Origin: a virus
Taxonomy: Duplodnaviria; Caudoviricetes
Virus record (IMG/VR): IMGVR_UViG_3300028888_000006
Span: 34,614-98,613 of that record
Length of the DNA stretch: 64,000 nt
Strand: one strand, 5' to 3'
Shown here: one piece after another, positions 1 through 3,895 of the stretch
Position numbering within the stretch: the stretch's first letter is position 1
Layout of the letters: every line of letters starts with the position of its first letter
Made by a program: the position numbers and the translations under genes
Notes under the pieces: model-generated
Told to the model about the DNA's origin: nothing
Databases searched by the model: none
Seen by the model: only the letters and a program-made list of their open reading frames with translations

Positions 1-2417
1 TCTTCAGATCCTGATTCAGCCATGAAATTCATGAAACGAAGCGGATGGATGCCGTCCACCCAGTATATCTTCTGGATGTCTTCAGTCTCGTAATAGACAA
101 CGGACTCTATCGGATGGTCAAGCGAGAACCCGAGATTTCCGGAGAAAAGCATATCAGACTTGAAAGAGTCGCCATCGTAATCTATCCTGTAGATATAGTC
201 AACAGATTCTTTCTCTTCCGTATCTTGATCGATATCGGAACCGCTGTTTACGACAGTGACGGTGCATCTGGCATTAACGGTAGGATTATCCTTCGCGCGG
301 ACAGTAATGACAGCAACGCCAACGGCAAGCGCCTGGATGTGGCCATCTTCGCCGACAGATACAATGCTCGTATCGGACGAGGACCACAAGGACATTTCGG
401 CGGCAATAGTCCGATGGCCATCCTCGTAAGTGACGGTAGCCACAAGATTACTGGAGGTTCCGACCTGCATTCTGACATTGCTGCTCGACAGACTTATCGA
501 CCTGACATTCAATTCGGGGTGATTCGGATCGGCTGACGGGATATCAGACTCGTCGTCAAATACAGCAACGGTTACAACATCCTTTATGACACCGCCGTCA
601 ACAGACGCGGTAATGGTAGTGTACCCGGCTCTGATACCGGTGACATTACCACTCGCATCGACAGTCGCTATAGACGAGTCCTGACTTGTCCAAGTCACGG
701 TCTTGTCGGTAGCATTGCTCGGAGTGATACTTGCCGTCAGTTTTGCGGAAGTATTCTTTACAAGGTTGAGGCTCTTCGGAGAAACCGAAAGATTGGTCAC
801 CTGGATGTAACCTCCGACAGAAACCTGACAGGTGTCTGTATATCCACCGTCTACCGTAGTTACAGTAACAAGAGCATTGCCTTTGCCAACGCCGACGACA
901 TTGCCATTCTGGTCAACAGCAACGATATCGGAATTCGAACTCGACCAAGAGACATCCTGAATATATGCGCCATTCGGATAAATGGTGTAACTAAGATGCG
1001 CCTTGGCTCCGACGCCGAGACTGAGCGTATTCCTGTCAAGCTTGATTCCGGTAACAGCCTTATTGATGGGCACGAGATAATCCGTCGGGTCTTCAACGAC
1101 GTGAACGGTCAGAAGTCTCGTTACGTTCGGGAATTCCTCACAATAGACATTGTAGTATATGACGCCGTCCGGAACATCGGCATTTGCGCGGATGTATATA
1201 CGATACTTTCCGTTCTCGGTTGTATCGCTGAAAACGGAGACATTCGCGGTGGTCGTTCCATCAAGTCTCTGAACTTTGATGCGCCCGCCAACATCGCCAT
1301 TGGAATTCTTTCCGAAAGCAAGAACAACTCCATCTGCTCCGCCCTTCTGGACAACCTTGACATTCTCCGAAAGCTCTATCTCGACGACATCCGTTGGCTC
1401 TGGAGTCACTGGCGAGATATACTTTTCGTAATGCCCACCAAGTACCTCAACCCAGACTGGATAATAGATATACGGATTGGACTTGAGGTAGAAGGTAACC
1501 GGGACGATACCGTAATCATAGCCGCGGGCTATGCGGACAAAGTCTTTCTCTGAATTGATAAAGGATACGACTCTTGTCTCAGGAATAATCCATCCTATAT
1601 CCGTCGTATGGTCTTCAATCTGTTCGAATTCATCATTGTCGTAAACGACTAAACTCGTCTTGAACGGATTCTTCCTTATTGCTGTAGATTCGTAAATCGA
1701 AATATCGTCGTTATAATAGAACTCGATGCTGTCATTTCCACAAACAAGCCGAAGACCTTCATCTTCTGTTTTCTGATTGACGACATGGACGGTGCAGGTT
1801 GCGATGCCGAATTCCGGGTATGTAGGATTGTAGACCTTTATATGATATGTACCGGCAGAGTGAGCCTTGAACCATGTTATCGTATTCGTTCCTCCAAACT
1901 CCTGCTTGTATTCAAGCGTGAGTTTATTTACGGACTGCTCGTCAGGAACGAATTCCCAACGACCACGATAGTTCTGTGACTTGACGAGTTCGCTCTTGTA
2001 ATCGCCACCCATACCCCTTGCGCGGACGCAGAACAGCTGGTTCTTCTGAACCGTTACTTCTTCCGGCGCAAGAAAGATAGTATAAGGGATGTGATAGTTT
2101 TCTCCAGGAACCTCGTCATTGGCAACGACATTGACATTCAATATCGCATATTTACTGCGATCTACAACCGAATAGACACGAACAGTAGTAGAACCGGCGG
2201 ATACACCTTTGATAGTTATAACCGTATCATAGTAATCCTTATACTTGGCTACGGAACCGCCAACATAGCGAACGACATCCTTGTCTTCGACTATGACCTC
2301 GACGACACTCTTGTCTACAGCGCCGGTATCAGTAATTACTTCGGCCTTGATCTGGACCTGTTCATTCTTGTTGACAACGACGCTGTATTTTGATAACCGT
2401 ATGCTTGCAATGGACAT
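1..2417 (-). CDS. Ig-like (Big_2-type) domain array fused to the C-terminal part of the tail muzzle/stabilization protein; runs off the window edge
   Basis: Not in the ORF track (no stop in window). Hand translation from ATG 2417 (MSIASIRLSKYSVVV...) stays open to position 1. Contains Big_2-like repeats (TASITPSNATDKTVTWTSQDSSIATVDASGNVTG) then DYIYRIDY...FSGNLGFSLDHPIESVVYYETEDIQKIYWVDGIHPLRFMN, recognisable as crAss muzzle sequence. Confidence 0.85.
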   Translation of the reverse strand, partial: MSIASIRLSKYSVVVNKNEQVQIKAEVITDTGAVDKSVVEVIVEDKDVVRYVGGSVAKYKDYYDTVITIKGVSAGSTTVRVYSVVDRSKYAILNVNVVANDEVPGENYHIPYTIFLAPEEVTVQKNQLFCVRARGMGGDYKSELVKSQNYRGRWEFVPDEQSVNKLTLEYKQEFGGTNTITWFKAHSAGTYHIKVYNPTYPEFGIATCTVHVVNQKTEDEGLRLVCGNDSIEFYYNDDISIYESTAIRKNPFKTSLVVYDNDEFEQIEDHTTDIGWIIPETRVVSFINSEKDFVRIARGYDYGIVPVTFYLKSNPYIYYPVWVEVLGGHYEKYISPVTPEPTDVVEIELSENVKVVQKGGADGVVLAFGKNSNGDVGGRIKVQRLDGTTTANVSVFSDTTENGKYRIYIRANADVPDGVIYYNVYCEEFPNVTRLLTVHVVEDPTDYLVPINKAVTGIKLDRNTLSLGVGAKAHLSYTIYPNGAYIQDVSWSSSNSDIVAVDQNGNVVGVGKGNALVTVTTVDGGYTDTCQVSVGGYIQVTNLSVSPKSLNLVKNTSAKLTASITPSNATDKTVTWTSQDSSIATVDASGNVTGIRAGYTTITASVDGGVIKDVVTVAVFDDESDIPSADPNHPELNVRSISLSSSNVRMQVGTSSNLVATVTYEDGHRTIAAEMSLWSSSDTSIVSVGEDGHIQALAVGVAVITVRAKDNPTVNARCTVTVVNSGSDIDQDTEEKESVDYIYRIDYDGDSFKSDMLFSGNLGFSLDHPIESVVYYETEDIQKIYWVDGIHPLRFMNFMAESGSE

Positions 2418-2429
2418 ATGTCTAATCTT

Positions 2430-2699
2430 TTATTCGCCAGTATTCGTTTTCACTGCATCGTCGTGAAGGAAAAGGATGATGTGATTCTTCAGAACATTCC
2501 AGCCGACAACCTTACCAGGAAGTTCCGGAAGCGGAATCTCCTTGGTTCCTCGTTCGTTGGTCACGGACAGAAGAGTGTCGTGATCGCGGGCAATGATGCG
2601 GATGTTATGATTCTCGTATGCAGAAGATTCGCCTGCCTTTGAAATGGACAGGTCGCGGTTCATGCCTTTGTTCTGTAAGACGAATGCCTTCTGTTTCAT
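2430..2699 (-). CDS. N-terminal 89-aa fragment of the muzzle/stabilization protein
   Basis: KGMNRDLSISK...NIRIIARDHDTLLSVTNERG resembles the conserved N-terminus of crAss stabilization proteins; position directly after the ring-protein gene. Confidence 0.8.
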   Translation of the reverse strand: MKQKAFVLQNKGMNRDLSISKAGESSAYENHNIRIIARDHDTLLSVTNERGTKEIPLPELPGKVVGWNVLKNHIILFLHDDAVKTNTGE

Positions 2700-2702
2700 A
2701 TC

Positions 2703-3440
2703 CTAATGTCTTTTCCAGTATTCCTTCGCACCATTGTCGAAGAACGCCTTCCAGTGCTGGTTGTTTCTCGGAAGCAAGGTCTTGAACGAATTGAACAGCG
2801 TTTCCGCCTTGTCGAGATCGAGACGGGAGAATTCGTTCTGAGCATCACCCACAGACCAGCAATACTCCTGCTGCGCATTGGCAAATACCTGCTGCGATAT
2901 CTTCCCCATATCGAACTGGATAGTGAACCACTGTAGTTTAATGTAGTTCTCAAGTCCGCGAAGGAAAGACGCGTTGTCGGGAAGAAGCGGATAGCCCTCC
3001 TCGTCAACAGCGAAACCGCGATATGCAACTTCGACATCAACATCCTTCGTGGAGGTGAAGATGACCATTCCCTGCGTCTTATAAGTGAGTTCACCCGTGA
3101 GCAAAGCATCCGGCTTGATATCGGACATATGGAACGAATGACCGGAATAGCGATAGACCGGACCGAAGAATCCGGGCTTTCGGCAACAGTCGAGCCAGCG
3201 TTTTGCGTGCTGACGACCAGCCATTCTTACCTGGATCATCTCAACGAAATCACAGGGTAACTGACCGCGCCAGTTATGGATATCAACAATTGCCGTCTTC
3301 TCGTCATACAGTGCCGGAGTTCCCATCAGCTCGATGAAATCTACGGCGTATTCGACTGCGGTCTCGAAGGGGATGTCCCGCATCATCGGATGACGCATCA
3401 CCCTGTCGAGAATCCTTCGTATGTTTGTAGTCTGGTTCAT
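2703..3440 (-). CDS. Tail ring/tubular protein
   Basis: 245 aa; LPCDF and DEEGYPLLPDN motifs; synteny upstream of the muzzle gene. Confidence 0.75.
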   Translation of the reverse strand: MNQTTNIRRILDRVMRHPMMRDIPFETAVEYAVDFIELMGTPALYDEKTAIVDIHNWRGQLPCDFVEMIQVRMAGRQHAKRWLDCCRKPGFFGPVYRYSGHSFHMSDIKPDALLTGELTYKTQGMVIFTSTKDVDVEVAYRGFAVDEEGYPLLPDNASFLRGLENYIKLQWFTIQFDMGKISQQVFANAQQEYCWSVGDAQNEFSRLDLDKAETLFNSFKTLLPRNNQHWKAFFDNGAKEYWKRH

Positions 3441-3895
3441 ATCATTTCATTTCCATATTCCATTGGAACCCACGGACAGTCATAAGACTGATACAGTTCC
3501 TTCATCTTCTTGAACAGCTTCCTGTTTGCCACGAATCCATAGCACCTCAGGTTCTGCGTCTTGTCTCTTTTCGGAAGGAAGGCAAGACCGAATGCATTGG
3601 GCTCCCCATCGTAATGTCCTTTCTCCCAGTTGTAACTTCCATAACCGATAAATTTCTTTCCCATAAATCGTGGTCTCCTTCGTATCGTCACCGCTGCAAC
3701 CGTTCCAAATCCGCACGGAAGGTCTACTGCGCCTTCCTTTTTCAAATCTTCAGCAAGCAGACTGCAATATTCCTTGACGATAGCCGTATATGTATGTAGG
3801 TCTACCGGCTCATTCTTTCTCGTCCTTCTGACATACAGCTCATAGCCATCGGTCATGTCAGGATATCTTGCCTGCCCGCTGAATGCCAGTTTCAT
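3437..3895 (-). CDS. IHF/HU-like protein
   Basis: Basic 152 aa; VDLPCGFGTV hairpin-like motif; usual crAss position between ring genes. Confidence 0.55.
   Translation of the reverse strand: MKLAFSGQARYPDMTDGYELYVRRTRKNEPVDLHTYTAIVKEYCSLLAEDLKKEGAVDLPCGFGTVAAVTIRRRPRFMGKKFIGYGSYNWEKGHYDGEPNAFGLAFLPKRDKTQNLRCYGFVANRKLFKKMKELYQSYDCPWVPMEYGNEMI

Follow-up and report, generated by a model that had tools for sequence, protein, structure and literature searches.

The muzzle is a conserved gatekeeper at the tail end of crassviruses and, to our knowledge, has so far been known structurally as one chain only. Here we describe a muzzle gene that is divided by an in-frame TAA into two adjacent open reading frames (ORFs), which we call MuzN and MuzC, in a 64,000-nucleotide stretch of DNA (hereafter the window). 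The window comprises bases 34614-98613 of IMGVR_UViG_3300028888_000006, a 98,613-bp Caudoviricetes record with direct terminal repeats, and all features described in it lie on the minus strand.

The closest described system is the muzzle of Bacteroides phage PhiCrAss001 (crAss001), gp44, which forms a hexamer whose N-terminal propeller part lies above the immunoglobulin (Ig)-like domains and the distal crass domain; residues before 163 precede the domain IG1, itself inserted between propeller blades 2 and 3 (Bayfield et al. 2023, PMC10172136). Length variation among muzzles was attributed in the same work to insertions in the crass and IG2 regions, not to the N-terminal hairpin, and no split was reported (PMC10172136). 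Homology between gp44 (7QOK, 7QOL, 8CKB) and the MuzN/MuzC pair spans the N-terminus, propeller, IG1, crass domain and C-terminus, and the gp44 gene adjoins the ring protein genes, as here. However, gp44 is one chain of 1371 amino acids, whereas in the window the gene is cut between the equivalents of gp44 residues 85 and 88, and about 738 amino acids are added at the new N-terminus.

Two further systems share single aspects of this layout. The 'split nozzle' of the Pseudomonas podophage A1002 consists of a nozzle-base protein and an unrelated 'rope' protein (PMC13730344). It is likewise a podophage tail-end assembly made from two proteins but, unlike MuzN/MuzC, did not come about by breaking a single ancestral gene at a beta-hairpin, and an Ig array plays no part in it. 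The crAss-like phages also have modular adhesins that contain BACON and other Ig-like domains and that bind epithelium and mucus when displayed on another phage (PMC13370021). In both cases Ig-type domains stand in tandem on a virion protein of a Bacteroidota phage, although the adhesins of that study were not reported as belonging to a muzzle. The array in the window is a predicted adhesin; it makes up the N-terminal part of an essential tail protein, at an end that gene fission appears to have created. Neither a split muzzle nor inserts at the N-terminal hairpin turned up in full-text literature searches, and the two-gene muzzle layout seems undescribed so far.

A muzzle encoded by two open reading frames

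MuzN (2430-2699) is an 89-amino-acid ORF that holds the first ~80 residues of the muzzle fold and an 8-residue tail, ending in ...NTGE followed by the TAA (2430-2432). A 12-nt in-frame spacer (2418-2429), with an A-rich start context, leads to the ATG of MuzC (2415-2417). From there, about 450 residues of beta-rich sequence without family assignment (1062-2417) precede three Big_2 Ig-like domains (PF02368; MuzC residues ~453-726; 240-1061), an acidic linker recognized in the translation (204-239) and the resumed muzzle fold, which begins with the strand DYIYRIDY... (PF25731; 1-203). MuzC continues for 4417 nt past the window start, to genome position 30197, and in the fetched DNA of the same genome that includes the part outside the window (L002:5584-12417) it measures 2277 amino acids in full: a ~738-residue insert made up of the three segments just named, and then muzzle. 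The 89-residue N-terminus, the stop and the in-frame ATG 12 nt further on were all reproduced at the positions given in a preliminary description of this DNA.

Both ORFs belong to the same protein family. MuzN matches positions 7-84 of the Pfam profile PF25731 (crAss_MUZ; 69.7 bits), and MuzC residues 733-802 take up the profile at positions 80-149, in a match that extends to position 1224 (619 bits; cut-off 27). MuzC also matches PF25729 (crAss_MUZ_C) at 29.1 bits (cut-off 27), and a phmmer search against the Protein Data Bank (PDB) recovers the solved crAss001 gp44 (7QOK_A) with an E value of 4.5e-172. In the alignment with that chain, MuzN residues 11-78 fall on residues 11-85 and post-insert MuzC starts from residue 88. 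Because the alignments end at 85 and restart at 88, the two segments are contiguous in the unsplit homologue, and four unsplit relatives in IMG/VR likewise pass directly from ...ILFTHED... into ...RIYRVDY... without interruption. The preliminary description had stated that the segments are normally adjacent in homologues and that muzzle sequence resumes near position 200; the alignments bear out both statements. The pair thus shows the whole-profile match, the gp44 homology and the tail-block position of the muzzle family and departs from it in not being encoded as a single polypeptide.

The stop codon is conserved and both sides are under purifying selection

The reality of the TAA was judged from agreement among independent assemblies. 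The stop, a 12-nt spacer and the ATG recur in L003, an IMG/VR contig of a different metagenome, and in two contigs from the European Nucleotide Archive (ENA; L012 and L013), with variation at nearby bases, and many independent assemblies (JGI, ENA and Logan) reproduce the stop. Synonymous divergence (dS) between the window and these three relatives is 0.14-0.69 over MuzN and the insert. Over MuzN, 0-1 nonsynonymous differences stand against 12-18 synonymous ones, giving a ratio of nonsynonymous to synonymous divergence (omega) of 0.00-0.02. The insert has an omega of 0.03-0.07, with 0.03-0.05 in the first ~450 residues and 0.04-0.07 in the Big_2 part. MuzN also keeps the residues that are invariant in fused muzzles.

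Protein clusters at 90% identity agree with this. The MuzN cluster holds 23 distinct sequences, the commonest of them on 19 contigs, and 13 of the 15 listed are 89 residues long. None of the 13 distinct full-length sequences in the MuzC cluster (2247-2278 residues) is fused, and a ~2370-residue fused form was not found among proteins of 1252-3985 residues. These comparisons confirm the split as real, old and under selection on both ORFs.

One of the relatives has a mosaic MuzC gene. Between L012:3001-9750 and L002:5584-12417 the array is nearly identical (nonsynonymous divergence, dN, 0.025-0.035), but past the insert the muzzle sequences have diverged strongly (dN 0.32, dS 1.7). The pattern suggests recombination within the gene, in which the N-terminal module was kept and the distal part swapped.

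Split muzzles in related phages

Searching a large protein collection for small ORFs resembling MuzN yielded 56 clusters, plus one from a search of representatives, and in 41 of these the ORF stops 1-13 residues past the same ...ILF(L/T)H strand. Lengths of 82-92 residues are typical, as are 105-125 where an earlier loop has an extra insert. Five further loci could be read across the junction. In L034 the two ORFs meet in a TAATG overlap and the large ORF has 2237 residues, with a BACON match below the curated cut-off; in L035, TAG and 2 nt precede a 2227-residue ORF with BACON. L036 has a TAA and 12 nt, in frame, before 2018 residues with Big_2, and L037 an ATGA overlap before 1836 residues with Big_2. 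The fifth, L014, has TGA and 4 nt, then three Big_2 domains and a Pro/Thr-rich linker before the contig ends. Muzzle sequence resumes after the array in all five, and MuzN stands directly upstream of MuzC in every split locus with readable downstream DNA. Between split lineages, identity is 64-86% for MuzN and 51-64% for the post-insert muzzle, falling to 23-39% for the arrays, which are 310-738 residues long. The two-gene muzzle is therefore a clade-wide architecture and not a peculiarity of this genome.

Among 18 IMG/VR loci, the split was found in the window's own lineage only. No GenBank phage was matched by megablast, and tblastn against GenBank returned only crAss001-like phage muzzles at 29-35% identity, of which the best one inspected, PQ006092, is unsplit. 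A 68-residue coding sequence (CDS) upstream of the PQ006092 muzzle was considered as a MuzN-like split and rejected, being unrelated, with a GIY-YIG-like N-terminus. This CDS (L038:2223-2429; PQ006092.1, Bajarodcaudo virus 1) overlaps the start of the unsplit muzzle by 4 nt and may be a homing endonuclease remnant, judging from its sequence; the muzzle itself carries a ~35-residue repetitive insert at the same hairpin. A 113-residue N-terminal ORF was also seen on a low-coverage 833-bp contig (L015).

The break lies in a beta-hairpin that tolerates large inserts

To place the cut structurally, the first 330 residues of an unsplit relative were modelled with AlphaFold2 from a 26-row alignment (mean predicted local distance difference test score, pLDDT, 70.6; 81-89 around the cut site). 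The model matches the crAss001 muzzle chains 7QOL/7QOK with an E value of 2.5e-18. Residues 74-81 and 85-93 form consecutive strands joined by a three-residue turn, and gp44 residues 85 and 88 flank the cut site; in the model, the break is in the tight turn of a surface beta-hairpin. Since gp44 residues before 163 precede IG1, the cut falls in the N-terminal propeller part. The preliminary description had put the fibres at the tail tip, and in this respect it needs correction, as in crAss001 that part lies above the Ig-like and crass domains and not at the extreme tip (PMC10172136).

A second insertion hot spot occurs one loop earlier, after ...NERGNK..., around MuzN residue 57-60. Inserts of ~35 to ~125 residues are present there in several lineages, some split and some unsplit (L007:4001-4345, L014:6619-6978, and L023-L027 from 5001).

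Fused relatives carry additional sequence at the main hairpin. The distance from the strand to the motif QKIYWVDG is normally 50-70 residues in full-length relatives, and it rises to 390-550 in P0130, P0132, P0134 and P0135 and to 108-202 in P0143, P0138, P0152 and P0146. The inserts (70-490 residues) sit exactly between both hairpin strands and are flanked by Gly/Ser-rich or acidic linkers. In P0130, P0132, P0134, P0135, P0143, P0138 and P0152, which are fused metagenomic muzzles, the site is the same as in the window, after ...ILF(T/L)H and before ...IYRIDY. These genes are single ORFs whose insert is tethered at both ends, whereas the window's array would be attached at its C-terminal end alone. 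Similarity between the fused inserts and the window's array is weak, at the Big_2 level, or absent; some inserts are Big_2-like by weak BLAST matches.

That fused relatives carry 70-490 residues here implies that the hairpin tolerates large inserts. In a tree built from the ~345 residues that follow the point of muzzle resumption, all eight split genes and four of six fused genes with large inserts fall in one 38-row clade, with a Shimodaira-Hasegawa approximate likelihood ratio test value of 99. The split state requires five changes on this tree, and well-supported branches force at least two. The pattern could also come from recombination, and we claim no number of origins. The hairpin is an insertion hot spot in one crassvirus clade, whose members have a split gene or else a fused one with an insert there. 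The route proposed in the preliminary description, a loop insertion combined with gene fission, agrees, in either order of events, with the large inserts that fused relatives carry at this hairpin.

The N-terminal array of MuzC

The Big_2 family is matched in three stretches of MuzC residues ~453-726, with 121.5 bits against a cut-off of 22.8, and the PDB sequence matches of this region are Big_2-type domains. The first ~450 residues are less easily classified. Residues 1-452 match no Pfam family at E<=0.01 and give noise alone at E<=1, and their sequence pattern suggests about four domains. Comparison of the four putative domains with the Big_2 alignment by hhalign was not significant (best probability 11%). 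A single-sequence AlphaFold2 model of residues 1-455 is nearly all beta, with a pLDDT of 36 that makes it usable no further than 'mostly beta'. The nearest ESM Atlas clusters to this part are Big_2, which we treat as a lead only. Of the Ig array reported earlier, the three Big_2 repeats stand, and the Ig assignment of the N-terminal ~450 residues, beta-rich with no significant family match, does not. In relatives, the linkers at the boundary between array and muzzle are acidic or Pro/Thr-rich. An Ig-like decoration on a phage structural protein is familiar from T4 Hoc.

Gene neighbourhood

The ring protein 1 gene (Ring1; 2703-3440; PF24228, 207 bits) lies directly upstream of MuzN with a 3-nt spacer, and Pfam matches place both the Ring1 and the Ring2 genes upstream of MuzN in the window. 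The order Ring2, 152-residue ORF, Ring1, MuzN, MuzC is common to the related loci fetched, in which an ORF of 267-295 residues follows MuzC and a cargo protein gene comes next where the DNA could be scanned; crAss_CARG1 was identified downstream of MuzC in L012, L013, L034 and L035. The 152-residue ORF between Ring2 and Ring1 (3437-3895) matches no Pfam family. An ORF of 149-152 residues occupies the same gap in the related loci listed in full, and one of 176 residues in one more distant contig. In the split-muzzle relative L034 (1-7089), giant ORFs of >2600 and 1088 residues lie upstream of Ring2, where other loci have tail hub genes, and show weak CotH, laminin-G and GH16 matches.

A probable two-chain muzzle and its alternatives

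We consider it very probable that the window encodes a real, selected two-gene muzzle whose two chains would complete each other in trans and carry putative adhesin arrays. MuzN would be a separate chain that supplies the N-terminal arm and the first beta-strands of the propeller region, and MuzC after the insert would contribute the propeller, IG1, the IG2/crass domain and the C-terminal domain. As the break sits in a tight hairpin turn, the last MuzN strand would pair there with the strand at which MuzC resumes the muzzle, rebuilding the fold in trans. The 12-nt spacer and the normal start context should give close translational coupling and hence similar amounts of both chains. If the assembly is a hexamer like that of crAss001, each virion would bear six MuzN, six MuzC and six flexible arrays. 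The arrays would probably project outward from a C-terminal tether near the barrel-muzzle junction; attached by one end, each could stretch to its full length, which a loop insert anchored at two points could not.

Glycan adhesion is proposed because of the Big_2/BACON content and the published Ig/BACON adhesins of crass-like phages (PMC13370021). Judging from domain types and this analogy, the arrays most likely bind glycans of the host envelope or capsule, or of gut material.

A broader reading, which we hold tentatively and at slightly less than even weight, sees the hairpin break as an evolved 'socket'. Adhesin cassettes (Big_2, BACON or unassigned beta domains; 310-738 residues) on the freed MuzC N-terminus could be swapped or grown without disturbing the fold, which would be completed by trans beta-strand complementation with a ~85-residue partner. 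The split muzzle would then be an unrecognised, fast-evolving determinant of adhesion or host range at the crassvirus tail, one that arose or spread more than once in one clade.

Several points weigh against a two-chain muzzle with adhesin arrays. Binding between MuzN and MuzC is a prediction, as is the outward direction of the hairpin in the assembled hexamer. The first ~450 residues of the array lack a family assignment, and the binding role of the array is predicted. With an in-frame junction in this lineage and in L036, a minor read-through product may also be possible.

The most durable alternative, though an improbable one, is that the TAA is read through, by programmed leakiness or a suppressor, to give a single fused muzzle of ~2371 residues, with the 89-residue product minor or a by-product. 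The two ORFs share a frame and lie exactly 12 nt apart in the window, L003, L012, L013 and L036, and a fused product could fold, given that some relatives have fused muzzles with a large insert in this very loop. Yet the codon is the commonest ordinary stop of this genome: among 72 long ORFs, 40 end in TAA, 18 in TGA and 14 in TAG, as in the standard code, and the only tRNA is tRNA-Met, leaving no suppressor. Some crass-like phages reassign TAG or TGA to sense and carry a suppressor tRNA. Such reassignment was rejected for this genome, where all three stops terminate ORFs, tRNA-Met is the sole tRNA and the in-frame stop is single. (Read with table 11, the more distant muzzle genes of L009 and L010, from 4001, are interrupted by several in-frame stops, which is what stop reassignment in crass-like phages would lead one to expect; the window's genome has nothing of this kind.)

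The DNA around the stop also argues against read-through. RNA folding there is no better than in shuffled sequences (z = -0.55), and window positions 1-3000 have no Rfam match at E<=0.1. In L013, 4 of the 12 spacer bases are changed, which would replace two of four residues if the spacer were translated, against a dN of 0.005-0.026 in the neighbouring sequence. The MuzC ATG fits the genome's own start consensus (A at -13, -12 and -4; T at -1), and the 12-nt spacer is typical of this compact operon, where gaps run from -4 to +12 nt. Finally, every stop codon and every relative frame is represented among the five further junctions. Read-through cannot join out-of-frame, ATGA or TAATG junctions and therefore does not account for split muzzles in general. 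Programmed read-through was accordingly rejected on the fold score, the variable spacer and the out-of-frame junctions of relatives, and obligatory read-through, raised as an alternative in the preliminary description, is very unlikely in view of the code, the tRNA, the RNA fold, the spacer and those same junctions. A group I intron or intein was rejected as well, there being no Rfam match and the intervening sequence being an in-frame domain array under purifying selection.

Slightly less probable still is that MuzN is a leftover or serves another role and that the muzzle is built from MuzC only, lacking its first strands. As MuzN-MuzC binding is predicted, there is some room for this, but purifying selection on MuzN is very strong (omega 0.00-0.02), the protein retains the residues invariant in fused muzzles, and 41 clusters preserve it as a small ORF of its own, always directly upstream of MuzC where the DNA is readable. 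As for an assembly or sequencing error, which the preliminary description had allowed for, or a recent inactivating mutation, many diverged independent assemblies carry the same TAA with substantial synonymous divergence and selection intact on both sides, which excludes error and makes a pseudogene vanishingly improbable.

Implications for crassvirus tails

The two-gene form calls for a change in how such genomes are annotated, since a MuzN-type ORF of ~85 residues is easily left 'hypothetical'. If the muzzle of these phages does consist of two chains, it would show that nature can complete a beta-propeller region in trans, and the split muzzle offers a target for cryo-electron microscopy and proteomics. 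In this abundant, mostly uncultured order of phages, binding to host capsule or gut glycans may be controlled by the variable, exposed module at the N-terminus of MuzC.

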